Below are positions 11,980 to 28,248 of a stretch of 30,506 nt of DNA, piece after piece. This DNA is from a virus. The stretch is from IMG/VR virus record IMGVR_UViG_3300044606_000094, positions 1 through 30,506 of that record; one strand, written 5' to 3'. Each line of letters starts with the position of its first letter. The first letter of the stretch is position 1. The notes under the pieces were generated by a model. That model did no database searches. It was not told the DNA's origin and saw only the letters and a list, made by a program, of their open reading frames with translations. Position numbers and translations under genes: made by a program.

Positions 11980-11999
11980 AAATTTTTAACAAAGACAAT

Positions 12000-12028
12000 A
12001 TTATATAAAATTATTTAATTGTTGTCAA
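12000..12028 (-). promoter_or_regulatory. Sigma70-type promoter P1 (TTGACA, 17 bp, TATAAA) upstream of the prohead protease gene
   Basis: Minus-strand -35 TTGACA at 12023-12028 and -10 TATAAA at 12000-12005; short leader with no SD before ATG 11979. Confidence 0.55.
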
Positions 12029-14157
12029 GTATTTTTTTTCACAACAGGGAATATAGTGCATCTACAATTAATAGAATCACCGGGCAAACTCATATCCCCA
12101 GGGGCTTGTCCTGTCGCTCCAGTTGATAGAACAAAATCCTCATCAATAGGGATTGCTCCATGTATCCCATATCTATGTCCTGCCTCTGCATGTGCCTCAC
12201 GCGTAACCTCGTCATAAGCAGGCAACCATCCTTTGAGCTCAACCATTTCATTTTCTCTGTATGCTTCAATTGAGCCAGCATTCAAAGATGATATAACTTC
12301 AGTCTGTGCTATACGAAGCGTTCTATAATCCCGCTCCATATCAAAGACTTCAGCAACTCGTTTAGATATAACCTCTATACCTGAACCGAGAGCTATTTCT
12401 TCATCAATAACTTTCTGTAATTTTTTTCTTGTAGTGTTATTTATATTTTGAGCCCATTGAAAACATTTAAGTTTTATCCAGTCCTCTATCCTTGACTTTG
12501 ATTTTTCTTGCATAACAGGAGCATCTTTTTTAGTCCATTCTTTAAGCAATAAATTCTCTGAATCTCTGCCTTCATAAATTGATTTGCGTATATGAGGTGT
12601 CATAACTTTTTCAAGTTCTTCATCCATCTCTCTGTCTGATATACCAATATCCATTAGATTAGGTATTTGTCCTGTATATTTAGAAAGTGCTTTTAATATT
12701 TTATCTCTTTGATTATCAAAATACTTTCTAACATCTTTTTGCATCGGCTTACTTAAATTATTTGCTAATATAATAAAGCGATGATGTTTTGATTTGAGCA
12801 TAGCCCTTGATGGAGTGATATTTGCTTTATATCCTTCATCAAATTCTTTCATCATCTTTTCATAATTAAAGTTAACAGAATTAGAATTATTTCCTTCAGG
12901 CATTGAGCCAGAAGGATAAACAGACACAGGAATATAAGACACATCAGTAATGCCTTTTACTTTTGAGAAAGGCAAGTCATAGGCATCTATAAGCGTGTCC
13001 ATAGGTATGCCCATTTGCCAATATCTATTTATATAGTTAGATCGTTTTTCCTCATCAGCCCTTAAAGCCTTTATCTCTGATTCAACTATATCAAAATAAA
13101 TTTTGCCTGTTTTATCAAACAGAGGAACATAAAACTCATTTAATATCTGACATATCTTTTCAGCTTTTGGCAATATCGTAGATCGCCAATATATCTTTTC
13201 TTGCTCCTCTGAATTTGCATAATTTGCGTATTCAAATATCCCGACCATAGCAGGAGGAACGCCAAACACTGCACATATATCTTCCCTGCTCATTTTAGTT
13301 TGTAAAACGAAATCCATATCTTTTTGTGAAACGCCAAGCATTTCAACTTTTGCTCCTTTTTCAATGAATACAACGCCATGAGAATTTTTATTTCCTTTAT
13401 ATTGCTGATTCCAATTTTCACGCATACGATTGCGTTGCTGTTGTGAGAGAGGATTAGGTGCAACAATAGCAATATCAGGACGAGCAGAATTTTTAAGAAA
13501 ATTAAGATTCCATTTGCTACCTGCATTATGTGTTTCTACTCCAATGCGTGCTGCAGCAAGAGGTGCAAGTCCATAGTGATAATCAAGAGGATTAAAGTTT
13601 TTAAAATGTATTATTTCCTCTGGCTTAAATATTATAGATTTTCCATTAACCAAATACTCATAACCTTTTATAAATTCGTTTGGATTATCAGATTTCAAAA
13701 TCTTTACATATGAAGGAATCAAAGGCCAGATCATAGTTGGAATACCTTTTGAATTATTAACTTCTAATTTCCAGTAAGCATTCCCAGTAAGCTCAAGACC
13801 GCCCTGTGTCCATTCAAGTAAATCAGACATTGTCATCTGATTATTAACTTTGTAAAGCAAATCAAGAGCAGGATGCTCATATATAGTTTCATCTTTTTCA
13901 TTGTAGAGAGCGATAGGAACAGAACTTATATCTTGTATAATTCTATGAACACAATTAAAAACCCATATGCTATCAGCATAAGCCTTTAAATAAGAATCAT
14001 AAGAATTTTGAGAGGGAGAAGGCAATTCATCATCAAGCTCAAATAATTCTGAATAGGTAGGACTTAAAAAAGATTTTTCTTTTGATGTGAATATATTTTT
14101 AATATTTTTAGCACTTCTGATTATTTTTTCAAACATTTGAATATTATAGTAAAACAA
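12025..14157 (-). CDS. Portal protein fused to a C-terminal SPP1 gp7-like (Mu F-like) head morphogenesis domain; likely start ATG at 14136
   Basis: 710-aa ORF after TerL. C-terminus KGWLPAYDEVTREAHAEAGHRYG...INCRCT matches the gp7 / Mu F family signature. The listed start is TTG; the first ATG is at 14136. Confidence 0.65.
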   Translation of the reverse strand: MFYYNIQMFEKIIRSAKNIKNIFTSKEKSFLSPTYSELFELDDELPSPSQNSYDSYLKAYADSIWVFNCVHRIIQDISSVPIALYNEKDETIYEHPALDLLYKVNNQMTMSDLLEWTQGGLELTGNAYWKLEVNNSKGIPTMIWPLIPSYVKILKSDNPNEFIKGYEYLVNGKSIIFKPEEIIHFKNFNPLDYHYGLAPLAAARIGVETHNAGSKWNLNFLKNSARPDIAIVAPNPLSQQQRNRMRENWNQQYKGNKNSHGVVFIEKGAKVEMLGVSQKDMDFVLQTKMSREDICAVFGVPPAMVGIFEYANYANSEEQEKIYWRSTILPKAEKICQILNEFYVPLFDKTGKIYFDIVESEIKALRADEEKRSNYINRYWQMGIPMDTLIDAYDLPFSKVKGITDVSYIPVSVYPSGSMPEGNNSNSVNFNYEKMMKEFDEGYKANITPSRAMLKSKHHRFIILANNLSKPMQKDVRKYFDNQRDKILKALSKYTGQIPNLMDIGISDREMDEELEKVMTPHIRKSIYEGRDSENLLLKEWTKKDAPVMQEKSKSRIEDWIKLKCFQWAQNINNTTRKKLQKVIDEEIALGSGIEVISKRVAEVFDMERDYRTLRIAQTEVISSLNAGSIEAYRENEMVELKGWLPAYDEVTREAHAEAGHRYGIHGAIPIDEDFVLSTGATGQAPGDMSLPGDSINCRCTIFPVVKKNT

Positions 14158-14171
14158 AAATATTTTGTCAA
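14143..14171 (-). promoter_or_regulatory. Sigma70-type promoter P2 (TTGACA, 17 bp, TATAAT), probably giving a leaderless portal mRNA
   Basis: -35 at 14166-14171, -10 at 14143-14148, then 6 nt to ATG 14136 with no SD. Confidence 0.55.
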
Positions 14172-14196
14172 GAACTATTTTTTATTTTAGTTTGGA

Positions 14197-15663
14197 TTAG
14201 TTTATATAACTTGCTCCGCCATTCTCTGATGCTGAACAAGCAAGAGCACAAGACCAAAAAGCATCGCCGTGTCCTTCATGAGTTTCAGGAGCATGCAAAT
14301 CATTATCAACTGATAATATTTGATTTTTCTGACGAATATCAGGCAAAAGGATTATAGTCGGTTCTGGCTTTGCTCTCACTCTGCTTTCAAATAATGCAGC
14401 TATTTCGTTTTTACTTTTAGATGTAAAGACAACAGGCTCCATACATTCAGGCAAAGCTCCCTTTTCAAAATAGCTTTCAAATTCACTTCTTGAATTATCA
14501 TATTGTAAACAAGTGATAGGTATATTATTACAAAGCTCTGTAAGATATTCAATCTGTTCTGAATAGTCCCAACCATCCATCCATTTAGAAAATATTTGAA
14601 TAAGTTTATTTTTCTTACTCTTAAATAAAACTAAATGGCTCGGATGTCTTTTCTTACCAATATCAAAACCACCGTATATCTCTTCATCATCAGCTATCTC
14701 AAAAGTATCAGGGTCTATTTCTTTTAAATCATAATCAATAACATCATTTAATTCTGCGTGTGTGAAATAACCCTCCTCACCACGAACAGGCATACATAGA
14801 TACTCTTTATTAAAAGCCTTCTCGCTTGAGATGTCAGCCTTTATTCGTTCCAATTCTTCAAGAGGAAATTTTTCAGGCCACAATGATTTTTTTATTCCAT
14901 TCTCTACATAGATTGCTGGCTCTGTCTTACAATAGAACCCTGGCCTCTTTTTATTTTGATTAAACAAATCTGTAGGGTCTTGGCTCGTTCCCCAGCAGTG
15001 TAAAAAACCACCCTGTTTAGGCATTGACATAATCTCTTCCTCAAATATCCTTGAAATCTCTTTCATTTCTTCAAGATTAATTTTTCTTTGTGTAGCATCT
15101 TTTAAAATATCATCACATATCACACCGTCAGGGTGCATACCTCTCTTTGCTCCTCTAACTCCAAATGGGATGATGCGAAGTGTTATATCTGTCTTTGGCC
15201 ATCTACAATATATCACACTATCGGCAGGGCTTAACCATTCAATATTTTTTAGTTCAGTTATCTGAAGCATATAATCTTTTATTTTCCTTGTATGATAGAC
15301 TGCTAAATCTTGCTTGTAAGAAAAATATAATATTTCATATGATTTTACTTTTCTAAAAAAAAGCCAGATACAAAAGGCATGTAATACCTCTGATTTGCCA
15401 TGCAAGCGGGCTGATTCTTTTGAAGTGAAATTATAATGTTGTAATTCATCACACCATCTATAAATATGTTGTCCAGATAAGAAAACATCATTATTTTTTA
15501 TTATTGCTTCTGACCAGATATGATTATAGAAATATTTAAATTCAGTAGTGGCTATGTTTTTTACTAATTGATTCTTGTATCTTTTTAATCTCTTCAATCT
15601 CTCTATCAATTGATTTGTTGATTTCATTGATGTCATCAGATAAATCCTCATTTGATACATCAA
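14197..15663 (-). CDS. terL: Terminase large subunit
   Basis: 488-aa; N-terminal ATPase-like region (RLHGKSE, GVICDDIL) and C-terminal acidic nuclease-like region (HEGHGDAFWSCALA); sits between TerS and portal. Confidence 0.7.
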   Translation of the reverse strand: MMYQMRIYLMTSMKSTNQLIERLKRLKRYKNQLVKNIATTEFKYFYNHIWSEAIIKNNDVFLSGQHIYRWCDELQHYNFTSKESARLHGKSEVLHAFCIWLFFRKVKSYEILYFSYKQDLAVYHTRKIKDYMLQITELKNIEWLSPADSVIYCRWPKTDITLRIIPFGVRGAKRGMHPDGVICDDILKDATQRKINLEEMKEISRIFEEEIMSMPKQGGFLHCWGTSQDPTDLFNQNKKRPGFYCKTEPAIYVENGIKKSLWPEKFPLEELERIKADISSEKAFNKEYLCMPVRGEEGYFTHAELNDVIDYDLKEIDPDTFEIADDEEIYGGFDIGKKRHPSHLVLFKSKKNKLIQIFSKWMDGWDYSEQIEYLTELCNNIPITCLQYDNSRSEFESYFEKGALPECMEPVVFTSKSKNEIAALFESRVRAKPEPTIILLPDIRQKNQILSVDNDLHAPETHEGHGDAFWSCALACSASENGGASYIN

Positions 15664-15982
15664 GCTCGCCAGATAATTCTAACTTTTGTTTAATAGCAAA
15701 TTCATCTGGACGCTTGCGTTCTAAATATTTGAATGCTAACTCCGCATTACCTTCGTTAATTGCTTTATGTAAAGTATTCCTCGCATTTAATACGGGTTTC
15801 TCTAATAGCATTTCTTTCCGTTCGGATATTTTGGGATTTCTTTTTAAAAAATCGGATAATGCAGCCTTTGAAATACCTGCAAAATAAGCTGCTTCTGCAT
15901 CACTACACCCCAAAGCCCAAGCCGTCTCTAATTTCTGAATTGTAATTTTATAATCTTTTCCATCAAATTGTTTTCGACCCAT
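15542..15982 (-). CDS. terS: Terminase small subunit (HTH-containing)
   Basis: N-terminal LETAWALGCSDAEAAYFAGISKAAL HTH and acidic coiled-coil C-terminus; immediately upstream of TerL and overlapping its start. Confidence 0.55.
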   Translation of the reverse strand: MGRKQFDGKDYKITIQKLETAWALGCSDAEAAYFAGISKAALSDFLKRNPKISERKEMLLEKPVLNARNTLHKAINEGNAELAFKYLERKRPDEFAIKQKLELSGELDVSNEDLSDDINEINKSIDREIEEIKKIQESISKKHSHY

Positions 15983-15988
15983 AGCAAT

Positions 15989-16017
15989 AGTATAATCAAT
16001 TATTTATTGTTTGTCAA
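15989..16017 (-). promoter_or_regulatory. Sigma70-type promoter P3 (TTGACA, 17 bp, TATACT), probably giving a leaderless TerS mRNA
   Basis: -35 at 16012-16017, -10 at 15989-15994, 6 nt to ATG 15982, no SD. Confidence 0.55.
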
Positions 16018-16031
16018 GTTTTTTCTATAAA

Positions 16032-16298
16032 TTAATTTATTAGTGTGAAAACTATTTTTTCAAAAATACCAGTATAATTTGGATAGAGATTATCATAAAC
16101 CTCCTTCATTTCAGGAGGGATTAAAAATTGTGTCTTATCAATTATTTTTACTTTGGCGAAAGGTGGACGTGGTCCTACTGTTAAAGTAATAATTTCTCCT
16201 ATATTAGGATTTCTGTTACTTTTTTTACGAATAGTATAATTTTTTTCACCTGACAATATTGGTTTAACATATTTCTCTTTGAACCATAAAGATTTCAT
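16032..16298 (-). CDS. ASCH (PUA-like) domain protein
   Basis: 88-aa; KYVKPILSGEKNYTIRK resembles the ASCH core; strong RBS AGGAGG; start overlaps the stop of the upstream gene (ATGA). Confidence 0.55.
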   Translation of the reverse strand: MKSLWFKEKYVKPILSGEKNYTIRKKSNRNPNIGEIITLTVGPRPPFAKVKIIDKTQFLIPPEMKEVYDNLYPNYTGIFEKIVFTLIN

Positions 16299-17377
16299 TT
16301 TCTACCTCCTATATATCTAAATGAAGCCGTAAGTCTCCTAAAAGATGAAATTTTTTTATGCATAATATTATTAGGAGTACAATGTCCTAATCTCCTTAAT
16401 TGCCATTTAGGACTTCTTGAACGATGAAAAATCATAGCAGGATGAGATGTTGTAGATATAAAAATAAATCCTTTTTTAGTTAAATAATTACCTAACCATT
16501 CTGATAATATATTGCCTATTCCAAGCCCCTGATAATCTGGTAAAACTACTGTTCTATGTTCTCTTTTATACTTCATACTTGAAGAATGAGGAAAATGAAT
16601 ATAACTGGTAAAAGCAACTGGTTTATTTTCCCAATAAGCAACAAAACATTGTGCTTGATCCGCTATATCAGCACTTAAATAATGATTTCCTCTAAAAATT
16701 TTCCACATACTTCTATCTGTTTTATAGATTTTGAGTTTAATTTTGGGGCGTCCTTGAAGAGACCTCCAATTAAATTCATTTTTTGTAACATCATAAATCC
16801 AATCAGGTTGTAACCATTCAATAATATCATAATGACAAGATAATAAAACTATTTTTTTATCTGGAAAATTTTTACGAAAAACTTTTTGAAGACAATGAGA
16901 TACTGTTTTTGCAACATCTCTATCTATAACAGAAGTAAATTCATCTATTACTATATTCTTATATTCGCTTAATATAACTCGCACCAAATCTACCCTAAAT
17001 TTTTGTCCATTTGAAAGTGTATGCCAAGATTTAAGCCACGCTACTGGAGAACTTAAACCAATATTATTTAATACTTCTATAATTTTTTTTATTGGAATAT
17101 CTTTATTAAAATCATTTAAAAAAGAATCATCTTTTTTCCATTTAAATCCTGTTATCATTTTAAAATCTTTAAAAATCTCAGAAGCAATAACTGTTTTACC
17201 TGAACCTGAATTACCAACAATTAATCCTATATTCCATTTTTTATTTTCTAATGGCAATGAAACATCCCATTCGTGTTTTACTTCAGTCATATTAGGAATA
17301 TCAAATATTCCAATTACACTATCAACTCTATAACTCTTTTTCACTGGAGTGGTTCTTACAATGTGATAATTCGGCAT
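16295..17377 (-). CDS. ABC-type ATPase domain fused to a GNAT-like acyltransferase domain
   Basis: Walker A GNSGSGKT, ABC signature-like LSNGQKFRVDLVRVIL, Walker B IVIDEF, H-loop-like LLSCHYD; C-terminal VVLPDYQGLGIGNILSEWL resembles GNAT motif A. Confidence 0.55.
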   Translation of the reverse strand: MPNYHIVRTTPVKKSYRVDSVIGIFDIPNMTEVKHEWDVSLPLENKKWNIGLIVGNSGSGKTVIASEIFKDFKMITGFKWKKDDSFLNDFNKDIPIKKIIEVLNNIGLSSPVAWLKSWHTLSNGQKFRVDLVRVILSEYKNIVIDEFTSVIDRDVAKTVSHCLQKVFRKNFPDKKIVLLSCHYDIIEWLQPDWIYDVTKNEFNWRSLQGRPKIKLKIYKTDRSMWKIFRGNHYLSADIADQAQCFVAYWENKPVAFTSYIHFPHSSSMKYKREHRTVVLPDYQGLGIGNILSEWLGNYLTKKGFIFISTTSHPAMIFHRSRSPKWQLRRLGHCTPNNIMHKKISSFRRLTASFRYIGGRK

Positions 17378-17880
17378 TTTTTCCCCTTTTTTGTAAATTC
17401 TTCATATATTTCTCTTTGCTCATTTTCATCTTCACAAGTAATAACAACTTCAAAAATAGATATTAACTCTGGTATTTTAATATTTGGTGTATTAACATCT
17501 ATATCAAAGCCAACTTCTACAAGCATTTCTTTTGAAAATTTAGAATTAAGTATTTCCATATCCCAATCTCCGACATTCTTATTTGAACGAAGATTATACT
17601 CTTTCAATTCATTTTCAGTTAACTTTCTGCTTGGAACTCTGACATCAATATATTCATCACCTCTGCCTAAAGCCTGCATTATCTTTAATCTTTGATGACC
17701 TGCGATTATTGTATTGTCAGTATTGATTGCGGGTATTTCAGCAAGATTAAATTTTTCAAGACTTTTAGTCAACTGTTTTTCTTGCTCGGGTGTGATTTTG
17801 CGAGGATTATGTTGGTAAGGTATCAAATCTGATATCTTCCTTTTTTCTGTTTTCCAGAATAAACTTTTATTTTTTTTCAT
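17356..17880 (-). CDS. ParB-like nuclease domain protein
   Basis: LIPYQHNPRKITPEQ...IPAINTDNTIIAGHQRLKIMQALG matches the ParB N-terminal (sulfiredoxin-like) core; overlaps the start of the next gene by 22 nt. Confidence 0.7.
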   Translation of the reverse strand: MKKNKSLFWKTEKRKISDLIPYQHNPRKITPEQEKQLTKSLEKFNLAEIPAINTDNTIIAGHQRLKIMQALGRGDEYIDVRVPSRKLTENELKEYNLRSNKNVGDWDMEILNSKFSKEMLVEVGFDIDVNTPNIKIPELISIFEVVITCEDENEQREIYEEFTKKGKKCRIITL

Positions 17881-18095
17881 ATTAATTTTATCCTATCTTT
17901 TATTTTATCATTTTTTAATAGAGTTTCAAAAACATCATTTGTTATCATAAAAAACATTAAAGAAATATGCTTGCCATAATTTATCAAATAACATTCACGG
18001 CAAGGATAAACATATTTTTTATTTATAATCAATTCTGCCTTTTCATTATCTAATAAAAACTTCTCTATTTGTTCTATACCAGTTAAATTAATCAT
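17877..18095 (-). CDS. Hypothetical protein
   Basis: 72-aa ORF in a tight gene run. Confidence 0.35.
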   Translation of the reverse strand: MINLTGIEQIEKFLLDNEKAELIINKKYVYPCRECYLINYGKHISLMFFMITNDVFETLLKNDKIKDRIKLI

Positions 18096-18098
18096 ATA

Positions 18099-18374
18099 TT
18101 ACTTCTTTATACTTTTATACCAATCAAACAATTTTTTATTTAACTTGATGATATAGTAATGATTATTTTTACGAGGGTCTTCATAGTCTATCATACCTAT
18201 TTCCCTCATATTTCTCAAATACCTGCTAACAGATAGACATCCATCACCATTAGGTATTATATCCCTCTCAACCCCTTTTGTATGGATCATAAGCATATTA
18301 TTTTTACTCCTATGCTGGATGAGAAACTTAACTATACTTTTTTCTATCTCTGTTTTTTCTGTGAATGAAAACAT
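18099..18374 (-). CDS. Hypothetical protein (possible winged-helix DNA binder)
   Basis: 91-aa basic ORF with RBS AGGAGG. Confidence 0.35.
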   Translation of the reverse strand: MFSFTEKTEIEKSIVKFLIQHRSKNNMLMIHTKGVERDIIPNGDGCLSVSRYLRNMREIGMIDYEDPRKNNHYYIIKLNKKLFDWYKSIKK

Positions 18375-18375
18375 A

Positions 18376-18534
18376 TTAATCCTCCTTTTTATTTACAATC
18401 TTTTCATATATAGATTGTAATTTATTTAACCAAAAATTTATGACAGGAATTAATTCATTTCCAATTGCTTCTTTTAAATCACATAATTTATTATTAAAAT
18501 CTTCCAATTTACCGATTTCATTTTCTTTTTTCAT
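18376..18534 (-). CDS. Small ORF not in the track (about 52 aa, MKKENEIGKLEDFNNKLCDLKEAIGNELIPVINFWLNKLQSIYEKIVNKKED)
   Basis: RBS AAGGAGG then ATG at 18532-18534; fills the whole gap between flanking genes; shares a diverged segment of about 100 bp with the tape-measure gene (5427-5525). Confidence 0.4.
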   Translation of the reverse strand: MKKENEIGKLEDFNNKLCDLKEAIGNELIPVINFWLNKLQSIYEKIVNKKED

Positions 18535-18721
18535 TTTTCCTCCTTTTATAAGCAATTGTTTTATTATATACTAATGTGTAATATTCAGTTCCATCTGATT
18601 TACATCCTTTGCATTTAAAATTGCATTCAAGAATATTACCCTCAATTGTCATAGAATAAAACGATATTTTTCTACCACATACAGGACAAGTGCCATTTAT
18701 TTTTCCTATATATTCTTTCAT
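18518..18721 (-). CDS. Zinc-ribbon small protein
   Basis: 67-aa with CPVCG ... CNFKCKGC cysteine pairs. Confidence 0.45.
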   Translation of the reverse strand: MKEYIGKINGTCPVCGRKISFYSMTIEGNILECNFKCKGCKSDGTEYYTLVYNKTIAYKRRKNEKRK

Positions 18722-18761
18722 TATATTGTTTCTCCAGTGTTAATCAAACTTCTGCCACAAA

Positions 18762-19007
18762 TCAGTAATAAAGTGCTTTAGCAATTTCCTTTGCAATTTC
18801 TACTGCTTTTTTATAAACACTACTCCCTTCTCTTGCTTTATAATCTTTATAAGGAAATTCTGACCATGCAATATATTCATAATTATCATGCGGAAATAAT
18901 TTTACAATTTTTGCATTTTTATCAATGAATATTTCATATTTATGTCCATTAATTATAATATTTCTTTTTTCACCTGCTATTATCTTTCTTAATATTTCTT
19001 TTTTCAT
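18762..19007 (-). CDS. Hypothetical protein
   Basis: 81-aa ORF with RBS AGGAGG. Confidence 0.4.
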   Translation of the reverse strand: MKKEILRKIIAGEKRNIIINGHKYEIFIDKNAKIVKLFPHDNYEYIAWSEFPYKDYKAREGSSVYKKAVEIAKEIAKALYY

Positions 19008-20798: not shown

Positions 20799-20815
20799 AT
20801 TTCCTCCTATTTATT

Positions 20816-21112
20816 TTATATTTCTATCTCAACTTTTCTTTCTTTATTCCACGCAGCATCCATATAAAGACACTTTATTTGATTAATTAGCTTATCTATA
20901 GCATCTTCATTATCCACAAAAAACTTTCCAGATGATGACATACCCTCCATTACTTTCAAATTATACACCAACTGATCAGACCTATTCTCATAACTACTTT
21001 TTATAAATATCTTAGATGTATAAGTTGTATCATTTTCAAGTACCTCAATTATTACCATTCTTTTTCCATTTTCATCGACTTTTTGTTTTACATCCAATAT
21101 TACTTTCATAAA
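20816..21112 (-). CDS. Hypothetical protein (start revised to ATG at 21112, MKVILDV...)
   Basis: RBS AGGAGG 5 nt before this ATG; the longer listed ORF (to 21223) would run through a promoter and a 5'UTR hairpin. Confidence 0.45.
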   Translation of the reverse strand, partial: FMKVILDVKQKVDENGKRMVIIEVLENDTTYTSKIFIKSSYENRSDQLVYNLKVMEGMSSSGKFFVDNEDAIDKLINQIKCLYMDAAWNKERKVEIEI

Positions 21113-21218
21113 TCCTCCTATAAACAAATTGGTGGAGGGAGGATGTAGATGCGAACGAGGACTACATCCCCCCTTAAATTCATTTATCTGTTTTATATGA
21201 TTGTGTTCGCATACTGAA

Positions 21219-21248
21219 ATCATACTAAATTATTTTTATAGTTGTCAA
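21219..21248 (-). promoter_or_regulatory. Sigma70-type promoter P4 (TTGACA, 18 bp, TATGAT)
   Basis: -35 at 21243-21248, -10 at 21219-21224; preceded by a hairpin (21257-21302) and followed by a GC-rich 5'UTR hairpin (21135-21172). Confidence 0.5.
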
Positions 21249-21256
21249 GTTGTAAG

Positions 21257-21302: not shown

Positions 21303-21306
21303 AAAA

Positions 21307-21582
21307 TTATTCTATATAACTTATTTTTTTATCACCGCCACATAGAGGACATATCCTATCTATATCGTCCTCTACTATTTCGCCATTCTCATCAAGAAAT
21401 GGCTTCATTAAATTATCATCAGGAACATATTCAATATCATAATTATTAATTTCACTTAATTTTTTATACAATTCATTTCCTGTCACATTTCCATATCCAT
21501 CACAAAGAGGACACTCTTCATTTACTTCATAGAATTGTGTCAAGCGATTACCTCTATCCCAAGTATCTGATTTTGTTTTCAT
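21307..21582 (-). CDS. Zinc-ribbon small protein (two CxxC pairs)
   Basis: CPLCDG ... CPLCGG motifs. Confidence 0.45.
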   Translation of the reverse strand: MKTKSDTWDRGNRLTQFYEVNEECPLCDGYGNVTGNELYKKLSEINNYDIEYVPDDNLMKPFLDENGEIVEDDIDRICPLCGGDKKISYIE

Positions 21583-21854
21583 TTGTCCTCCTCTTTTTTA
21601 TATGGAATATTATAAATTTTACAAAGTTTATGTAATTGTGTTTTTGTTAACTGAATATATTTCACATAATCAAAATCAAAATAATTAAAAAACCCAACTT
21701 TAGCATTTCCATTATCATTTAGTATAATGTCAAAATAACTATATTTTAGACCATAATATAGTTCTATAATATAATGTATTTCTTTTTTTAATTGTCCATC
21801 ATTTTTATTTGCTTTTAATTGCTCTATAATTTTATTTAAAGGAATTTCTGTCAT
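21579..21854 (-). CDS. Hypothetical protein
   Basis: 91-aa ORF with RBS AGAGGAGG. Confidence 0.4.
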   Translation of the reverse strand: MTEIPLNKIIEQLKANKNDGQLKKEIHYIIELYYGLKYSYFDIILNDNGNAKVGFFNYFDFDYVKYIQLTKTQLHKLCKIYNIPYKKEEDK

Positions 21855-21991
21855 TACTCCTCCTCTTTATATTTTCTCTTTATCTCTTTCGTTGTTGCAT
21901 ATCTTTTTTTATTATACTTATATAATCTTTTTTTTATTTTTTTATTGATTATTCTGTCAATATTCATTGCATTTATCTTCATAATTACTCC

Positions 21992-22174
21992 TCATTTAGG
22001 CAACCAGAATTTCCAGAATGGCCTGCTATAATGCTTGCAAGGTATCATAGCTATATTCATTGTCTCTTTCCTTGCTATATACATCTCAAGACACATTTTA
22101 AATGAAGAACAATCTTCGCATTGCCTTTGTTTTAATTTCTTTTCTTTACCATTTCCTATTTTTATTTTAAACAT
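21992..22174 (-). CDS. Cys-rich small protein
   Basis: 60-aa with CEDC ... C ... C. Confidence 0.35.
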   Translation of the reverse strand: MFKIKIGNGKEKKLKQRQCEDCSSFKMCLEMYIARKETMNIAMIPCKHYSRPFWKFWLPK

Positions 22175-22188
22175 TTTATCCTCCTTAA

Positions 22189-22818
22189 TTAAACTCTTGT
22201 TATTGTTTTTTTCTTGGCTATAACGCCCGGTAAAATTTCCCTTTCTTGTTTATAAGCTTTGGCCAATCCATTCAGGAAAGGCATATTAATCTCAACTGCA
22301 TTTATATCAGCCTTGCCATCAGCAATAGCTTTTATAAGTGTCATTTTGTCAACAATTTCGGCATACCAAGATATAGAAAAAGAGGCTGATCCTGTTGATT
22401 TCACTGTTTGAATTATCTGAGGGGCCTGAGTTATAGGCCTTCCTGTTTTTTCAGCCTTCTCTACAGACTTTTGGAACTTCTCATCGGCTTTCTTTTGTAA
22501 TGCCTCCCTGCGTGCGTTCTCGGCCGTAACAAAAGCCCCAATCTTTTGTCTTAATTCACTTTCAGCACTTTTAAGAGGATCAATCATTTCATCCCTCAAT
22601 CCTCTTATCTCATCGTAGGCTTCTTTTGCCTTTTTAACAGCAGGGTTTACCTTCTCCTCTATTTTTGTTCTCATTGATTTTATAGCAGAAAGGAATGATG
22701 TCGCCCTTTCTGTGTCCTTCTCTGACTTTATAATTATTGATTTTGCCTCAATAATTATATTCTTGCTTTCATTTGTTAGTTCATTTTTTATTTCACTTGT
22801 TATTATTTCGTTTTCCAT
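22189..22818 (-). CDS. Hypothetical helical protein associated with the recombination module
   Basis: 209-aa charged, coiled-coil-like ORF immediately downstream of the exonuclease gene. Confidence 0.4.
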   Translation of the reverse strand: MENEIITSEIKNELTNESKNIIIEAKSIIIKSEKDTERATSFLSAIKSMRTKIEEKVNPAVKKAKEAYDEIRGLRDEMIDPLKSAESELRQKIGAFVTAENARREALQKKADEKFQKSVEKAEKTGRPITQAPQIIQTVKSTGSASFSISWYAEIVDKMTLIKAIADGKADINAVEINMPFLNGLAKAYKQEREILPGVIAKKKTITRV

Positions 22819-22838
22819 TTTATTCCTCCTATTAGTTT

Positions 22839-23471
22839 TTATTCTATTTCTGACAATTCTTCTTTTTGCTTTCTATAACCGTTGTTTATTTTAATCGTAT
22901 GAGAAGCCAGCAAAGTTATAAATTCGTAAAAATCTCTTTTGCCTTCGTGCTTGACAAATAAGTATTCGTAAGGTGTAAGATATAACACATATCTTTCCTG
23001 CTCTCCACATTCGTGCCTAAAGAGATATTCATATGCGGCAGTTTGCCACTTATGCCATATCTCTTGTTTTAATATATTACAAGTTTTTAAATCAATTAAG
23101 GCAGGGATATTATTTACAAGAGCCAACTTGTCAGCTCTTCCTGCATATAAATATTTTGGACTATATCTCATAGTCTCATTTTGTAAAATTTTCACGGATG
23201 GGTTTTCTTTTAAAAATAAAATATATTGATTATAAAATGGTATCAAAACAGGGTCAAGCGATTCAACTTTAAGCCTGCCCTCATCGTGCCACTGACATGC
23301 CTGATGCACATATTCACCCCGCTTTGCTGCAACCTGCGATGAGAAATTATAAAGATTTAATTCTGCTTTGATGATTTCTGTGACGCTCGGTATGATTATA
23401 CCTTCAGGCGTCATATAAATATGCCCCTTCACTTCAAAACAGGGTTCGTAAATTCTTTTTTTTCTTTTCAT
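22839..23471 (-). CDS. PD-(D/E)XK family exonuclease (RecT partner)
   Basis: GRADKL ... IDLKT ... QTAAYEY fits the D...(D/E)xK...QxxxY nuclease pattern; adjacent to RecT. Confidence 0.6.
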   Translation of the reverse strand: MKRKKRIYEPCFEVKGHIYMTPEGIIIPSVTEIIKAELNLYNFSSQVAAKRGEYVHQACQWHDEGRLKVESLDPVLIPFYNQYILFLKENPSVKILQNETMRYSPKYLYAGRADKLALVNNIPALIDLKTCNILKQEIWHKWQTAAYEYLFRHECGEQERYVLYLTPYEYLFVKHEGKRDFYEFITLLASHTIKINNGYRKQKEELSEIE

Positions 23472-23490
23472 TATTTGCCTTCCCTTCTTT

Positions 23491-23526
23491 TAAAAGGGCA
23501 GACCCATTTAAGAGCCTGCCCCTTTT
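23491..23526 (-). terminator. Hairpin between RecT and the exonuclease gene (terminator- or attenuator-like)
   Basis: GC-rich stem GGGCAGAC / GCCTGCCC with flanking T and A runs on both strands. Confidence 0.4.
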
Positions 23527-23537
23527 AGTCTGTTATC

Positions 23538-24434
23538 TTATTCAGCAGGCTCAATATTAACCACATAATGATATTCGTTATCTTTATATAGTTCTGTTCT
23601 ATATGTTATCTTGCAAGGATAACCAACCGCTGATTCGCAATTACTGACTAATCCCTCATCCTTTACATTGACGAGGAAGAAGTCATCATTAATTTTAAGA
23701 GCCCTTGTTTTTTTACCTTGTTTTAAAGATAAAAACTCATCAGGCACTCCGATGATTTCCTTTAATTCATTTTCTTGTTCTGGTCTTTTTATTTCTTGTT
23801 TTTCTTTTTTATCTTCCTGCTTGTTTTCTTTTTCTTCATTTGTTTGAGGTGCTTTAATATCATCAGCATTGACATTGATTATTTTGCTTTTATCAATATC
23901 AACCATATTGTCTGGAAGTTCGTCAGCAGTGTAAGGCATACCTGAAAACTCGTCAGGAAAGGCCATCCTGAAACCCTGAGCGATGGCTACTTTTTTTAAC
24001 ATCGTTTTAGGCTTATTCATCCACATTGAATTTCCCTGATTATATTCAGAGAACTCTACCTCGTGGACAAGAGGCTTATCCCAATCCTTTCTATAGATAG
24101 TAACCACTGCAGTTAAGCCTTTATTTTTTATATCTCCATTTGTGGTTACTTCCCAACCAGCGAGCTTACCTGTCCTTTCAGCTCTTTTGAGATACACCTC
24201 ATATCCTGTTATGATTGACAACTTCCTTCCGTTCTTTGTTTCATAAGGTATACAATAGATTTCCCTTTTGAAAGGGTTTAATTGGAAGGCAACCGCAACC
24301 TCAACGAATTGCGTTATCTCATTGTCTTTAAGAGTATTAGATAAACCAAAACTCTTAAGATAAGAGATAACTTTTTCAGAAGTTATCATCTCAGTTTGTT
24401 TTTTTTCTGTCAATTCCCTATTTTCATTATTCAT
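23538..24434 (-). CDS. recT: RecT-like single-strand annealing protein
   Basis: QFVEVAVAFQLNPFKREIYCIPY...GYEVYLKRAERTG and MLKKVAIAQGFRMAFPDEF resemble the RecT family; paired with a nuclease gene. Confidence 0.6.
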   Translation of the reverse strand: MNNENRELTEKKQTEMITSEKVISYLKSFGLSNTLKDNEITQFVEVAVAFQLNPFKREIYCIPYETKNGRKLSIITGYEVYLKRAERTGKLAGWEVTTNGDIKNKGLTAVVTIYRKDWDKPLVHEVEFSEYNQGNSMWMNKPKTMLKKVAIAQGFRMAFPDEFSGMPYTADELPDNMVDIDKSKIINVNADDIKAPQTNEEKENKQEDKKEKQEIKRPEQENELKEIIGVPDEFLSLKQGKKTRALKINDDFFLVNVKDEGLVSNCESAVGYPCKITYRTELYKDNEYHYVVNIEPAE

Positions 24435-24444
24435 TCTTCCTCCT

Positions 24445-24762
24445 TTATTTTATTTTTTCTAATAATCCCAGTTCATAAGGGATTAACTTTATCTCATCAG
24501 TAGACAAGACTTTACCTTCAGGAAGTCTTGTAAGCACCCTGAAAACAAGAGCTTTATCCTCTGTTTCCATCTTTACCTGTAATCTATTCGTTGGGATTTT
24601 AATTTCCAATAAACAGCTCATAAATTCAGCAGTAGCCTGATGACCAACTGCTGAAGTAAACTCCCCCTTAAGGAGCTCTTTAGCCCCTTCAAGAGAAATT
24701 TTATTGAACTTATATTCACCCCAGTCTGTTAAAACTGGAGTATTAAGAACATACAACTTCAT
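24445..24762 (-). CDS. Hypothetical protein
   Basis: 105-aa ORF, start overlapping the HTH gene stop. Confidence 0.4.
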   Translation of the reverse strand: MKLYVLNTPVLTDWGEYKFNKISLEGAKELLKGEFTSAVGHQATAEFMSCLLEIKIPTNRLQVKMETEDKALVFRVLTRLPEGKVLSTDEIKLIPYELGLLEKIK

Positions 24763-24986
24763 TTTTCCTCCTGACTTTGTTTTACTTTTTGTAATGTCTT
24801 TATGGCCTTTTCTCTGTCATAAAAACAAACAGATCGCCCGTTTATGATTTTTATGTGACGGGGAATCTGCGAACCTTTCAGAATGTATATTATTTTTGCA
24901 TATGACATTTTGAAAAGTTTTGCCAATTCTCTATTTGTAATTTCCTTTTTATTTTTTATCTTTTCCATATTAACATATATTAACAT
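24759..24986 (-). CDS. HTH DNA-binding regulator (Cro/repressor-like); likely true start ATG at 24968 (MEKIKNKKEITNRELAKLF...)
   Basis: HTH ITNRELAKLFKMSYAKIIYIL; the listed ATG at 24986 lies inside the promoter spacer, while the ATG at 24968 is 8 nt past the -10 with no SD. Confidence 0.55.
   Translation of the reverse strand: MLIYVNMEKIKNKKEITNRELAKLFKMSYAKIIYILKGSQIPRHIKIINGRSVCFYDREKAIKTLQKVKQSQEEK
24970..24983. promoter_or_regulatory. Operator-like motif TTAACATATATTAA, copy 1 (overlaps the -10 and start of P5; part of a tandem ATTAACATAT x2)
   Basis: Identical 14-mer recurs at 25060-25073; near-palindromic TTAA-N6-TTAA. Confidence 0.5.
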
Positions 24987-25006
24987 ATTTTAATTTAGTT
25001 TGTCAA
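24977..25006 (-). promoter_or_regulatory. Sigma70-type promoter P5 (TTGACA, 18 bp, extended -10 TGnTAATAT), leaderless for the HTH gene
   Basis: -35 at 25001-25006, -10 at 24977-24982. Confidence 0.5.
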
Positions 25007-25034
25007 GTGCCTTTTGATACTTTATACCTTTTTA

Positions 25035-25090
25035 AAATAAAAATCGCACCAGCCACCTGTTAACATATATTAAAAATCAAATGGCTGGTA
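25035..25090 (-). terminator. Terminator after the small HTH gene (8-bp stem ACCAGCCA / TGGCTGGT, large loop, U-rich tail)
   Basis: Stem at 25048-25055 and 25082-25089; the loop contains the second operator copy; the minus transcript continues UUUUUAUUUU. Confidence 0.5.
25060..25073. promoter_or_regulatory. Operator-like motif TTAACATATATTAA, copy 2 (in the terminator loop)
   Basis: Exact 14-mer repeat, 90 bp from copy 1. Confidence 0.5.
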
Positions 25091-25101
25091 TGTTGTCATC
25101 A

Positions 25102-25260
25102 TTACTTTTTTTTAATTATATTTAACTTTCTTTTTGTTAGTCCAAGTTTTTTAGCCCAATAATGAATTACACGAGTGCTTACTCCTAACTTTTTAGCCAA
25201 CTCAACCTCACTTGTTGAGTTGAATAATTTAATGAACTCTTTGTCGCTTATCGTTTTCAT
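25102..25260 (-). CDS. Small HTH protein not in the track (52 aa, MKTISDKEFIKLFNSTSEVELAKKLGVSTRVIHYWAKKLGLTKRKLNIIKKK)
   Basis: RBS AGGAGG then ATG at 25258-25260; clear HTH (ELAKKLGVSTRVIHYW); terminator directly downstream. Confidence 0.55.
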   Translation of the reverse strand: MKTISDKEFIKLFNSTSEVELAKKLGVSTRVIHYWAKKLGLTKRKLNIIKKK

Positions 25261-25272
25261 TTGTCCTCCTGA

Positions 25273-25686
25273 TTATATCAATCCTTTGTTTTTAAAACTA
25301 TAATATTTAAAACACTTACCAATAATCAAATGGTCAATAATATTAATATCTATTATTTTACCTGATTTTACTAACTTTTGTGTTATAATTAAATCATCTT
25401 CCGATGGTTCTACATCGCCTGATGGATGATTGTGGCATATAAATATACCATATATACCCTTCATAATAGCAAACCTAAAAACTTCACGAGGGGATACTAT
25501 TGAACTGTTAATATTTCCTAATGAAACTAATTCAATATATTGTATCATTAGTTTTACGTTTACTCCTGCCACCCAAAAGTGTTCTTTATTTTTATCAATT
25601 ATGTTATCTTTATTTAAAATAGCATAAAATACTGATGCCAACTCATCCATCCCAATAATCTTTGTTTTTTTAGATTTTATAAGCAT
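25273..25686 (-). CDS. RadC-like JAB/MPN domain protein
   Basis: HNHPSGDVEPSEDD matches the JAB metalloprotease motif (HxHP...S..D) typical of RadC-like proteins. Confidence 0.75.
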   Translation of the reverse strand: MLIKSKKTKIIGMDELASVFYAILNKDNIIDKNKEHFWVAGVNVKLMIQYIELVSLGNINSSIVSPREVFRFAIMKGIYGIFICHNHPSGDVEPSEDDLIITQKLVKSGKIIDINIIDHLIIGKCFKYYSFKNKGLI

Positions 25687-26369
25687 ATATCCTCCTTTTT
25701 ATCCTCATCATCATCATATGAAAACTTTTTCATCTCCCATTCCTTATCCAGATAGACAATATCTATCTTTAGATTTTCGTCTATCTTTTGCAAAAATAAA
25801 TCATTGCCTGGCCTATCCACATATTCCAAAAGATGGAGGGCTGAATTACCCCTTTTGTATATTTTTTTGCTAAACAGGATTGGATAAATATCCATTGCAG
25901 GCAATTCAATATCTTCATTTAGCACGCCTGCCATAGAGATGTGGAGTTGGCCACCTCTACAAATTTGCATCGTTTTGCTATCCTTTAAATACTCAACCCA
26001 ATAATCCTTACATCCCGAACTACCAGTTTTAACCCTTACTCTGTAAGGGCTAACTCTTTTAAGGTGCATTTCCTTAAAAGAGATCTTTTCAGTATCTTCT
26101 ATTTTTCTTAAGAGAGTATAAAGCATACTCTCTTCAAGAAATTTACCTGCTATCCTCTGGATGGTTAACCTCCCAAAGTAATCTATATTAAAATAATAAC
26201 GCCCCCAATTTTTAAGGGCGTCATTATATTTTACAATGATATGCTTTACATATTTATCATTGTAATTAGAAGTTTCAACATTTTCATTTGTTTCATTTGT
26301 TTCAGAGGTTTCTATTACCTCTGTGTTTTCTGTATTTTCAGTGTTTTGTTTTTGATTTCTTACTATCAT
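25677..26369 (-). CDS. Hypothetical protein with acidic N-terminal repeat (TENTENTEVIETSETNETNENVETS)
   Basis: 230-aa ORF; short tandem DNA repeats at about 26275-26340 encode the acidic repeat; overlaps the RadC-like gene start. Confidence 0.45.
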   Translation of the reverse strand: MIVRNQKQNTENTENTEVIETSETNETNENVETSNYNDKYVKHIIVKYNDALKNWGRYYFNIDYFGRLTIQRIAGKFLEESMLYTLLRKIEDTEKISFKEMHLKRVSPYRVRVKTGSSGCKDYWVEYLKDSKTMQICRGGQLHISMAGVLNEDIELPAMDIYPILFSKKIYKRGNSALHLLEYVDRPGNDLFLQKIDENLKIDIVYLDKEWEMKKFSYDDDEDKKEDICL

Positions 26370-26462
26370 ATCATCCTCCTATTTAATTTGCTCTTGCTCG
26401 GACTTGCCACCGTGCTTGTGCATTACGCCCCGCCCCCATAAAGCGGGGTGGCTCTGCCCTCC

Positions 26463-26687
26463 TTATTTACTGCAAATTTCTTCATCACCATCAAAACCTA
26501 CGATTCTTATACAACTCGCAGGTAATTCCCAGCCACCTTTTACATATTTTCTCAAGTCTATCCCTGTTACATCCCACGCAGAACATTCAATCAGCCCATT
26601 CTCAAACATCTTTTTTAGCTTTCTCCTACTCCTTATTATTTCAACTCCGTCATTATTTATCAAGAACTTTCTCTGTATCTTCTTCAT
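26463..26687 (-). CDS. Hypothetical protein
   Basis: 74-aa ORF with RBS AAGAGGA; first gene after promoter P6. Confidence 0.4.
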   Translation of the reverse strand: MKKIQRKFLINNDGVEIIRSRRKLKKMFENGLIECSAWDVTGIDLRKYVKGGWELPASCIRIVGFDGDEEICSK

Positions 26688-26816
26688 ATCATCCTCTTTT
26701 TATCTCCGCCTGCCGTTTTTTTTAAAAATCGGTCAGGGCTTACGAGATTTTTTCTTTTCTTTTTGCCTTATCTTTTTTGCTTTGCTTTTAAGAGAACTCT
26801 TTTTCCTTATACTTAT

Positions 26817-26845
26817 ATTATAGCAGACTATTGTTATTTTGTCAA
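26817..26845 (-). promoter_or_regulatory. Sigma70-type promoter P6 (TTGACA, 17 bp, TATAAT)
   Basis: -35 at 26840-26845, -10 at 26817-26822; part of a 35-bp block nearly identical to the one at 27975-28009. Confidence 0.6.
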
Positions 26846-26987
26846 GTCTTTTTTTTTATATTTTGTTTTTTCGTATTGACTTAAATCAATATGACATTTA
26901 TCAATATAAATAAAATAAACCATTGACAAACAAATAAAAATTATTTCACTTTTTTACTTTATTATTTTTGATTTTTGATATGATTAA

Positions 26988-27347
26988 CTAACTAAAATAT
27001 TTTTCTATTTCAGAAATGGCTTCCTGTGCTCCATGACAGACTACTGCTTTATATCCGTTTTCATTTAATTTTTTCAGGAAGGCTTTTTGATTTTCAGATA
27101 CAACTCCACCATGAGTTTTTTTCATCTCAATAAAAAGACCGTGATATTTTTTTCTTGCTTCAAATATCATCAGATCAGGTGTGCCTGCAGTGTAGCCCAT
27201 TCTTTTCACACGAATAGCCTTCATCATAGATAATCTTTCGCCTGATGCTCCTGCAGTAGTGAACAAAATATCAGGTTTAAATTTGCGTAAATAATTGACT
27301 ACGATTATTTGATTTTGTTCTTCCTCGTATCTCATATAAATCACCAC
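26988..27347 (-). CDS. VRR-NUC domain nuclease
   Basis: GTPDLMIFEARKKYHGLFIEMKK ... ENQKAFLKKL matches the VRR-NUC PD-(D/E)XK core. Confidence 0.75.
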   Translation of the reverse strand: MVIYMRYEEEQNQIIVVNYLRKFKPDILFTTAGASGERLSMMKAIRVKRMGYTAGTPDLMIFEARKKYHGLFIEMKKTHGGVVSENQKAFLKKLNENGYKAVVCHGAQEAISEIEKYFS

Positions 27348-27622
27348 CCCAACCTATGTTTAATATAAATTATAACAGCCTGCAGTGTTAAAGTAATCCC
27401 TGATGATACTATCATAGATGTTTTAGTATTTTCTTTTTTAATTGCTCTAATCTCTTCTAATATTCCTACCTTACCATTTCCATAGACACATTTTTCTAAT
27501 GTTTTTATCCTATTCAAAGCACCAATGTTTTCATCTTTTAATAATATCACAATCTCATCCATCTTTTTACCTATATCCTCAACCTTTTTCTCTAATAGTT
27601 CAGTATTCATATTAATTTTCAT
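27341..27622 (-). CDS. Small protein with N-terminal coiled coil and C-terminal transmembrane segment (XhlA-like?)
   Basis: Helical N-terminal part and hydrophobic tail MIVSSGITLTLQAVIIYI. Confidence 0.3.
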   Translation of the reverse strand: MKINMNTELLEKKVEDIGKKMDEIVILLKDENIGALNRIKTLEKCVYGNGKVGILEEIRAIKKENTKTSMIVSSGITLTLQAVIIYIKHRLGW

Positions 27623-27794
27623 TAAACATCTTATTTAATATATCTATTACATCATCCAAATCCTCATATCTTCCACTTTCAGAATTAAAGTTATCATAAA
27701 GAATATATAAGTCATAATATTCTTTATCATCATAACTATTTTTTGTTTTGTAAAATCTCAACTCACGAATATTTTTTAATTTATCTTTACTCAT
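27612..27794 (-). CDS. Hypothetical acidic small protein
   Basis: 60-aa ORF with RBS AAGGAGA. Confidence 0.4.
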   Translation of the reverse strand: MSKDKLKNIRELRFYKTKNSYDDKEYYDLYILYDNFNSESGRYEDLDDVIDILNKMFNEN

Positions 27795-27979
27795 CTAACA
27801 TCTCCTTAATAAATCTGCCTTTATGCTTTATCCTATCCTTTTTACTCATAATAATATTTGTGGCAGGATTCACCTTCCAATATCTTCTAACTTTTATATT
27901 TGTCTTTATCTTTTTATTATTCATAAATTTATAGGCACAAGTATAAATTATATACTTATGCCTTTTCTTCTATATCTAT

Positions 27980-28008
27980 ATTATAGCAGATTACTATTTA
28001 TTTTCAAT
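27980..28008 (-). promoter_or_regulatory. Sigma70-type promoter P7 (TTGAAA, 16 bp, TATAAT)
   Basis: -35 at 28002-28007, -10 at 27980-27985; near-duplicate of the P6 block. Confidence 0.5.
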
Positions 28009-28248
28009 GTTAGTTTTATTTAGTTTATCATTTATAATCTGCTCAACCTTCGCAAAGAACTCATCATCTTTTGTTGACTTTGTGGCTTTAACAATAGCCC
28101 TTGCCAGCGTATATACACCTGCAAGTATGCCTGTTATGATAGCAACAGTCTGCGGTGGTATCATACCACTCAATGCCTGCCATAATACAATACCTATGCT
28201 TAACGCAGTTAACCAGAACTCACTCGTTTTTACTCCTGATTTTTCCAT
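27994..28248 (-). CDS. Holin (two transmembrane segments); start revised to ATG at 28248 (MEKSGVKTSEFW...)
   Basis: Hydrophobic helices FWLTALSIGIVLWQALSG and TVAIITGILAGVYTLARAIV followed by a charged C-terminus; RBS AAGGAGG 8 nt before the internal ATG. Confidence 0.55.
   Translation of the reverse strand: MEKSGVKTSEFWLTALSIGIVLWQALSGMIPPQTVAIITGILAGVYTLARAIVKATKSTKDDEFFAKVEQIINDKLNKTNIENK

Follow-up and report, generated by a model that had tools for sequence, protein, structure and literature searches.

Sigma-70-type promoters abutting start codons in an uncultured phage genome and the predicted leaderless expression of its small terminase and portal genes

The DNA analysed here is a viral sequence of 30,506 nucleotides (IMG/VR record IMGVR_UViG_3300044606_000094, positions 1 to 30,506; referred to below as the window), the source of which is an uncultured tailed phage. 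Seven sigma-70-type promoter sites were identified on its minus strand, and three of these end 6–8 nt before the start codons of genes that lack a Shine–Dalgarno (SD) sequence: the small terminase gene TerS, the portal gene and a gene for a small, putatively DNA-binding protein of 69 amino acids. Leaderless expression from the abutting promoters is the best explanation of this layout and, judged on the sequence features, a likely one. The distance between the −10 hexamer and the ATG, above all that of TerS, is kept in relatives covering 28–63% GC, in which the alternative arrangement is translational coupling and an SD sequence is rare; it is this conservation across an uncultured phage family that is new.

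Promoter sites, chance expectation and Shine–Dalgarno sequences

The window was scanned for the consensus TTGACA-N16–18-TATAAT, each match being scored out of 12, and chance expectation was obtained from dinucleotide or composition-matched shuffles. All seven minus-strand sites listed in an earlier note on this DNA were present; their sequences were read directly, and they are the top minus-strand matches of the scan. The sites at 26845–26817, 14171–14143 and 12028–12000 scored 12/12, those at 28007–27980, 21248–21219 and 16017–15989 scored 11/12, and the site at 25006–24977 scored 10/12 with a TG extension in addition; TGn stands upstream of the −10 hexamer in three of the seven. The earlier note had described CTTGACAA as common to all of them, which applies to six: this 8-mer has six copies on the minus strand, one at each of these six sites, and a single plus-strand copy within coding DNA, whereas the sequence at the seventh (28007) is ATTGAAAA.

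Over the whole window and both strands, ten matches of at least 11/12 were counted, compared with 2.24 ± 1.56 in 300 dinucleotide shuffles, none of which reached ten; the corresponding figures for perfect 12/12 matches were three observed and 0.07 expected. On the coding strand of the non-coding DNA (2,020 nt or 6.6% of the genome, AT-rich at 28% GC) there were six matches of at least 11/12 against 0.10 expected, a count reached by none of 2000 composition-matched shuffles. The other four lie in coding DNA [23257, 7971 and 6670 (all three sense) and 30444 (antisense)], at about the background rate. An equal frequency of the motif in coding regions had been named beforehand as an outcome that would refute the proposal, and it was not observed; on the coding strand the motif is confined to intergenic sites, the seventh (28007–27980) overlapping the 3′ end of a holin-like open reading frame (ORF).

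For comparison, relatives were gathered from the contigs of portal homologues and from TerS-based loci, which together gave 131 loci with a GC content of 0.28–0.69 (designated by L numbers where they have to be told apart). These bear on the possibility that the motifs are not promoters at all and represent chance matches in AT-rich DNA, binding sites of a phage protein or junctions of module exchange. Both the base composition of the non-coding DNA and the mosaic boundaries adjoining some sites would agree with this; thus, the promoter at 26845 is identical in L131 but the gene behind it differs, which places a mosaic junction just after +1. Neither the shuffles nor the recurrence of a perfect 12/12 match at the same position in relatives of 50–63% GC, where chance matches are far rarer, fits such an origin. 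In addition, only the hexamers and their spacing are kept in diverged relatives (GC 0.28–0.63) while the spacer drifts, as seen for the TerS, portal and post-portal promoters, and this is the signature of a promoter. A non-promoter origin is consequently regarded as very unlikely, and the seven sites are predicted from their sequences to be promoters of the sigma-70/sigma-A type that divide the genome into modules.

Two ideas concerning the spacers were dropped. The motif AAATAATT, present in three of the promoters, was considered as an operator, but 8-mers of this kind are expected about 11 times by chance (estimated from base composition). Spacer-dependent activation of the MerR type was considered because a MerR-like gene is present, and was rejected since the spacers have the optimal length of 17–18 bp.

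SD sequences were assessed by pairing the 19 nt upstream of each of 49 starts with the anti-SD sequence. Values of −6 kcal/mol or better were obtained for 34 of the 49 genes, mostly through AGGAGG or GGAGG, and ten were weaker than −4 kcal/mol. The worst values (+0.6 to +1.5 kcal/mol) belong to the four promoter-adjacent genes starting at 15982, 14136, 24968 and 11979. One other gene (start 8154) is equally weak, and its ATG overlaps the upstream stop codon (ATGA). Of the six SD-poor genes that do not directly follow a promoter, four overlap their upstream neighbour or lie next to it (gaps between −11 and +3 nt), the usual layout for translational coupling; for the other two (starts 9828 and 29340) there are weak SD-like matches. 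SD sequences are present before the capsid, tail and lysis genes, inside operons. These scores bear out the earlier statement that TerS, portal and the 69-residue gene have no SD sequence and that most other genes carry AGGAGG, with the correction that a fourth promoter-adjacent gene, the protease/scaffold gene starting at ATG 11979, also lacks one. Distances of 6–8 nt from the −10 hexamer to the ATG were likewise confirmed, being 6 nt for TerS, 6 nt for portal and 8 nt for the small DNA-binding gene. Among the 49 starts, only TerS and portal combine a −10 hexamer of at least 5/6 at 4–10 nt with a 6/6 −35 hexamer. From the preceding stop codon to the ATG, these three genes with abutting promoters (TerS, portal and the small DNA-binding gene) have gaps of 49–60 nt.

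Genes with abutting promoters

The TerS promoter (15989–16017, minus strand) consists of cTTGACAa, a 17-nt spacer, TATACT and the 6 nt ATTGCT, followed by ATG 15982, and its geometry is kept in relatives. The gene (15542–15982, minus strand; 146 amino acids; PHROG 4102, E = 3e-14; SD score +0.6 kcal/mol) is predicted to be leaderless and has a single possible start: the conserved GRKxFDGK begins at residue 2, residues 2–9 are invariant with synonymous codon changes in relatives, and the next in-frame start lies 23 codons downstream. A TATAAT box (at least 5/6) ending exactly 6 nt before the TerS start was found in 11 of 43 non-redundant upstream regions, eight of the boxes being perfect; one region had it at 7 nt, and no other offset from 0 to 30 had more than three. 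The relatives with the 6-nt geometry have a GC content of 0.28–0.63 and TerS identities of 43–99%. They form about seven lineages (window/L063, L115/L076, L071, the L002 group, L069/L072, L118 and L100), with the L009 group at 7 nt; the lineages in this count, and in the count of 53 matches given below, are not all independent. Two of the TerS lineages are found in DNA of 62–63% GC, where a chance 12/12 match is very unlikely. Every locus inspected with the 6-nt geometry starts with ATG. The number of residues preceding GRKxFDGK is 0, 3 or 7 and the −10-to-ATG distance is unchanged; the ATG thus keeps its distance from the −10 hexamer while the N-terminal extension varies, so that the constraint is on the ATG relative to the promoter. 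This tracking of the promoter by the ATG is the strongest argument that the TerS transcript would start at the ATG. In the L002-type lineages the −35 element CTTGACAAGTAG doubles as the end of the methylase reading frame upstream, coding for its final LDK-stop. TerS lineages without the promoter show an ATGA or TGAATG overlap with the upstream gene, and one (L079) has GGAGG.

When the window and all loci were taken together, 53 distinct gene-strand matches of at least 11/12 were obtained. The ATG of an ORF of at least 60 amino acids follows at 5–10 nt in 21 of them, at exactly 6 nt in 14, and only nine have the ATG of a long ORF at 11–80 nt. The same layout occurs before other genes, namely the methylase gene of L002 (TGcTATAAT plus 6 nt) and a ParB-like gene of L009 (TATAAT plus 6 nt).

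The portal promoter (14143–14171, minus strand) reads cTTGACAa, a 17-nt spacer, TATAAT and ATTCAA (6 nt) before ATG 14136. It precedes a portal and Mu F-like fusion gene (12025–14136, minus strand; 703 amino acids; homologues PF04860 and PF04233; SD score +1.5 kcal/mol), which is also predicted to be leaderless. The JGI call for this protein (P0121, 710 amino acids) starts from TTG 14157, inside the promoter spacer. Given that K21 is the first invariant portal residue, the start is either TTG 14157, which lacks an SD sequence, or ATG 14136; in L002 and L017 just one ATG is available, and the portal frame opens only 9–12 nt ahead of it. With the next start, 37 codons downstream, the invariant K21, S22 and P26 would be lost. 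A subclade of portal relatives has TTGACA(A), 16–17 nt, TAnnnT, 6–9 nt and ATG, the gap from the −10 hexamer to the ATG being 6 nt in the window and L019, 9 nt in L002, 8 nt in L017, L022 and L023, and 7–8 nt in L024. In L018 there are 9 nt to the second portal ATG, and in L007 a portal-type promoter plus 9 nt stands before an inserted ORF of 134 amino acids. In relatives at 51–55% portal identity (L009, L015 and L027) the portal ATG overlaps the stop codon of TerL (TAATG), and more distant relatives overlap too, so that the promoter was gained in the subclade, where it replaced coupling.

In the promoter of the 69-residue gene (24977–25006, minus strand), cTTGACAa, an 18-nt spacer and TGtTAATAT are followed by ATGTTAAT (8 nt) and ATG 24968. 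The gene (24759–24968, minus strand) has no SD sequence (+1.5 kcal/mol) and is predicted to be leaderless or to have a leader of 1–3 nt. Two relatives of this promoter are known: L131 has CTTGACAA, 18 nt, TAAAAT, 8 nt and ATG, and L130 has CTTGACAA, 17 nt, TAAAAT, 10 nt and ATG, neither with an SD sequence. In-frame alternative starts exist at 24986, 24926 and 24908. Of these, the upstream ATG 24986 has been lost in L131, a close relative, and the only homologue (P0163, 65 amino acids, 51% identical) matches the 69-residue version, which supports ATG 24968. The protein had been called a helix–turn–helix (HTH) regulator. No Pfam or PHROG match and no HTH family were found by sequence, and what stands of that name is a winged-helix fold in the predicted model, with weak structural matches: the AF2 model (pLDDT 88) has the β-α-α-β-β-α topology of a winged helix, and its Foldseek matches, although weak (E ~ 0.1), are uniformly MarR/ArsR/PadR (wHTH) and MerR/Xis-like DNA-binding domains. 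Two overlapping copies of the 14-mer TTAACATATATTAA lie across the −10 hexamer and the start codon (24970–24993), and a third, exact copy is located 54 bp upstream of the −35 hexamer (25060–25073). The genome contains only these three operator-like copies, two of them exact, and their arrangement would fit a regulated, perhaps autoregulated, promoter.

If the start codons were mis-assigned and the real starts lay downstream, with ribosome-binding sites of their own, the three genes would have ordinary leaders. Automatic annotation does disagree on the portal start (the JGI TTG 14157), and the 69-residue ORF does offer in-frame alternatives. Against this, the next starts of TerS and portal would cut into invariant residues, the L002 and L017 portal frames leave a single ATG, and the 69-residue start agrees with both L131 and the 65-residue homologue. 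Mis-assignment is therefore considered extremely unlikely.

Expression from the abutting promoters and comparison with known systems

The −10 hexamer of a sigma-70 promoter spans −12 to −7, and a gap of 6 nt puts +1 on the A of the ATG. In the proposed mechanism the host housekeeping sigma-70/sigma-A RNA polymerase would transcribe the genome from the seven promoters. The canonical start, the seventh nucleotide after the −10 hexamer, would be the A of the start codon for TerS and portal and would lie 1–3 nt before the ATG for the 69-residue gene. The three mRNAs would begin with, or almost with, an SD-less AUG, and the 70S ribosome with initiator tRNA would bind this 5′-terminal AUG; ribosomes are said, in work of Brock and co-workers from 2008 (cited in PMC5312081), to recognise such an AUG. 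No terminator was seen between the upstream genes and these promoters, so that read-through RNAs would carry the same ATGs internally, where, without an SD sequence, they would be poorly read. Most expression of the gene directly behind each promoter would come from that promoter, probably at a modest level suiting low-copy proteins (the regulator, TerS and the 12-mer portal), and each added promoter would raise the amount of transcript for downstream SD-led genes such as the capsid gene. These ideas on dosage and gating are speculative. The leaderless reading of TerS, portal and the regulatory gene, as put forward in the earlier note, finds support in the intergenic position of the motif, the correctness of the starts and the geometry conserved in relatives.

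The same lack of a terminator would also allow a different route, in which the promoters are real but TerS, portal and the 69-residue gene are translated mainly from read-through RNAs by SD-independent internal initiation, either at AU-rich unstructured sites or by re-initiation; the closeness of the ATG to the −10 hexamer would then reflect genome compaction only. The relatives without promoters use a stop/start overlap for the same genes, which would make SD-less expression an ancestral habit, and the protease gene (start 11979) is SD-less even though it lies 20 nt from its promoter. Compaction, however, does not predict a fixed gap of 6 nt, nor would it move the ATG together with the promoter while the N-terminal extension changes. 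The stop-to-ATG gaps of 49–60 nt are long for re-initiation, and the start is always ATG in the loci inspected with the geometry, as leaderless initiation requires. Translation mainly from read-through RNA is accordingly judged unlikely.

Several points weigh against leaderless expression. The case for it is built from sequence geometry, and the gaps of 8–10 nt (the 69-residue gene and several portal relatives) would predict a leader of 1–3 nt, which is not strictly leaderless. Promoters and organisms differ by ±1–2 nt in the choice of transcription start. Strong SD sequences are used elsewhere in the genome, and the capacity of the host for leaderless mRNAs is an assumption. The timing of late expression is not accounted for by consensus promoters placed before late genes. 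The predicted structure at the 5′ ends of the three mRNAs is no different from that of other genes, which is uninformative either way.

An extension of leaderless expression, put forward tentatively and thought rather doubtful, is that translation is gated by the promoters, the SD-less ATGs of TerS, portal and protease being read efficiently only when they form the 5′ end of an RNA. The trigger for packaging and procapsid initiation would then be the firing of the genes' own promoters or a changed capacity for leaderless translation, and not the presence of RNA. That the same genes in relatives are either coupled or leaderless and rarely SD-led would reflect selection for such control across the family.

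The cI gene of lambda, transcribed from PRM, is a leaderless regulator gene of a phage. The 69-residue gene resembles it in that a small, predicted DNA-binding gene is placed at or near the transcription start, with operator-like repeats overlapping the promoter. The differences are that the phage shows neither a divergent switch nor a sign of lysogeny, that the scanned ORFs include no integrase and that a single strand carries all genes; moreover, the 69-residue protein matches no repressor family and its winged helix is only predicted.

A TANNNT motif whose first T lies about 12 bp before the start codon is a predictor of leaderless genes in many bacteria, including some Firmicutes (PMC3160421). 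Zheng et al. (2011) found such TA-led genes in 56 Firmicutes genomes out of 209, with an average share of 4.2% of genes (PMC3160421). TerS and portal fit this description exactly (a 6-nt hexamer plus a 6-nt gap), with no SD sequence and an AUG; they differ from the TA-led genes, which are those of host genomes, in belonging to a phage whose other genes are strongly SD-led and in having a full consensus −35 hexamer as well.

Leaderless expression had been called an unusual strategy, which overstates the case, as such expression is on record for phage genes, late ones among them (PMC3594737, PMC4351075); the organisation is of a known kind and nothing is overturned. In the Thermus phage phiYS40 most middle and late transcripts are leaderless, and infection is reported to raise IF2 and lower IF3 (PMC3594737, a review citing Sevostyanova et al.). 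The likeness is in virion and packaging genes being expressed from mRNAs without leaders, as predicted here. In the window, however, only the promoter-proximal TerS and portal have the geometry and the promoters have a full −35/−10 consensus, and the phiYS40 host belongs to a phylum rich in leaderless genes. Cluster O mycobacteriophages have SigA-like promoters predicted to give leaderless mRNAs, one of them inside the structural operon (PMC4351075), and thus share a sequence-predicted leaderless promoter within the structural gene region. Their host is actinobacterial, with leaderless genes being common, there is no sequence relationship, and conservation of the spacing has not been shown there across such a wide range of GC content.

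If the leaderless reading is true, a widespread uncultured family, found in metagenomes from groundwater, sediment and an Antarctic lake, habitually puts the first gene of a transcription unit at the transcription start. For annotation, SD-based gene callers mis-place such starts, as with the JGI portal start. For synthetic biology, a promoter joined to its start would make a compact cassette, one that seems functional in widely differing hosts, and for phage biology the pattern would suggest selection for low, promoter-dependent expression of TerS and portal.

Leadered promoters, gene content and further features

The promoters at 21248, 26845 and 28007 serve SD-led genes through leaders of roughly 100–180 nt. 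The first (21219–21248, minus strand: cTTGACAa, an 18-nt spacer and TATGAT) serves an operon of replication genes. The site agrees with the earlier note, but its gene starts at ATG 21109 with AGGAGG and not at the ATG inside the −10 hexamer. Between them is a structured 5′ leader of about 100 nt (21110–21212, minus strand; minimum free energy −29.8 kcal/mol, z = −3.55 versus shuffles). It contains a stable hairpin, GGGGGGAUGUAG...CUACAUCCUCCC, and the CCUCCCUCC arm could instead pair with the downstream AGGAGG, so that the leader may be a translational control element. The second (26817–26845, minus strand) has cTTGACAa, a 17-nt spacer and TGcTATAAT; the leader between it and ATG 26687 is about 125 nt long. 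The third is an extended −10 promoter (27980–28007, minus strand) with aTTGAAAa, a 16-nt spacer and TGcTATAAT, and ATG 27794 follows after a leader of some 180 nt. This promoter depends on the extended −10 element TGCTATAAT, which L131 keeps without keeping the −35 hexamer. These last two, early promoters share TCTGCTATAATATA and a purine-rich initial transcribed region; a similar TGCTATAATAT is found in L002 at 4735–4763.

The post-portal promoter (12000–12028, minus strand: cTTGACAa, a 17-nt spacer and TATAAT) has the portal stop codon TGA inside its −35 hexamer, and 20 nt without an SD sequence separate its −10 hexamer from ATG 11979. This ATG opens a prohead protease (S78) fusion gene (11038–11979, minus strand; 313 amino acids; Pfam PF04586; SD score +1.5 kcal/mol). 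Its mRNA is predicted to have a short SD-less leader, which a transcription start 7 nt past the −10 hexamer would make about 13 nt long, and would not be strictly leaderless. A promoter stands at the matching post-portal place in L019, L002, L017, L007 and L018. In three relatives (L002, 12100–12250; L017, 3020–3166; L007, 3956–4115) a conserved RNA of two hairpins, about 115 nt long and with an intrinsic terminator at its end, comes after the post-portal promoter, and the SD-less ATG of an 80-residue gene lies about 20 nt farther on. Compensatory changes were found in nine of 35 predicted pairs (three sequences compared), and an Rfam search of the post-portal leaders of the relatives gave no family. 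The RNA could be a small RNA or an attenuation/antitermination site controlling the head genes; the window has neither this RNA nor the 80-residue gene.

The two ends of the window overlap exactly by 36 bp (positions 1–36 equal 30471–30506), and the contig is therefore a complete circular genome of ~30.47 kb (about 30,470 bp), with a GC content of 32% and all genes on the minus strand; a tail-fibre-like gene spans the circular junction. The gene order was derived from family scans (Pfam and PHROG) of the ORFs. The early region encodes VRR-NUC, RadC, a MerR-like HTH protein, an STIV_B116-like protein, RecT and a PD-(D/E)XK nuclease, and is followed by an HTH_36 replication protein, a DnaC/IstB-like ATPase, a ParB-like nuclease, an ABC/GNAT protein and an ASCH protein. 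The late order is TerS, TerL (PHROG 38), the portal–MuF fusion, the S78 protease fusion, an HK97-type capsid, tail genes and lysis genes. The scanned ORFs contained no integrase, and the genome has no tRNA genes.

A megablast search of 19.5 kb against INPHARED (50,697 deposited phage genomes) gave no DNA-level match, and the TerL, capsid and portal proteins have only 22–29% identity to those of cultured phages. Weak leads to the host came from the capsid, which matches that of a Desulfofustis phage at 28% identity, and from RadC, the search with which gave one informative named match (54%), to a metagenome-assembled genome (MAG) of Thermodesulfobacteriota. A scan of genome contigs for the host yielded only a 24%-identical portal, on a contig of an Ignavibacteria MAG. 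An exact look-up of the TerS sequence returned no record. A TerS homologue (51% identity) is located on the 521-kb contig Ga0265297_10000042 (L087), possibly as a prophage in a host chromosome, and this contig is the best lead for naming the host of the phage family.

Only three homologues were found for a protein of the lysis region. The 158-residue lysis-region protein encoded at 28864–29340 is publicly named 'isocitrate dehydrogenase kinase/phosphatase', a name that is unsupported, with no Pfam or PHROG match.

The strongest terminator-like hairpin of the genome (26193–26227, minus strand; a 16-bp stem followed by a T-run) lies inside an ORF of 230 amino acids (25677–26369), about 140 nt past its start. 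At 26398–26458 (minus strand) there is a match to the Rfam type-P5 twister ribozyme (RF02684) with 33.3 bits, below the gathering score of 37.6, and with E values of 0.0018 over the whole window and 3.6e-05 locally; the full model is covered. L131 has other genes (ThiF and others) at this place. The candidate twister sits between the genes at 26463–26687 and 25677–26369, inside the transcript from the 26845 promoter, and keeps the conserved segments GCAGAG, UAAUGC, CAAG and CGGU..CAAGxCCG.

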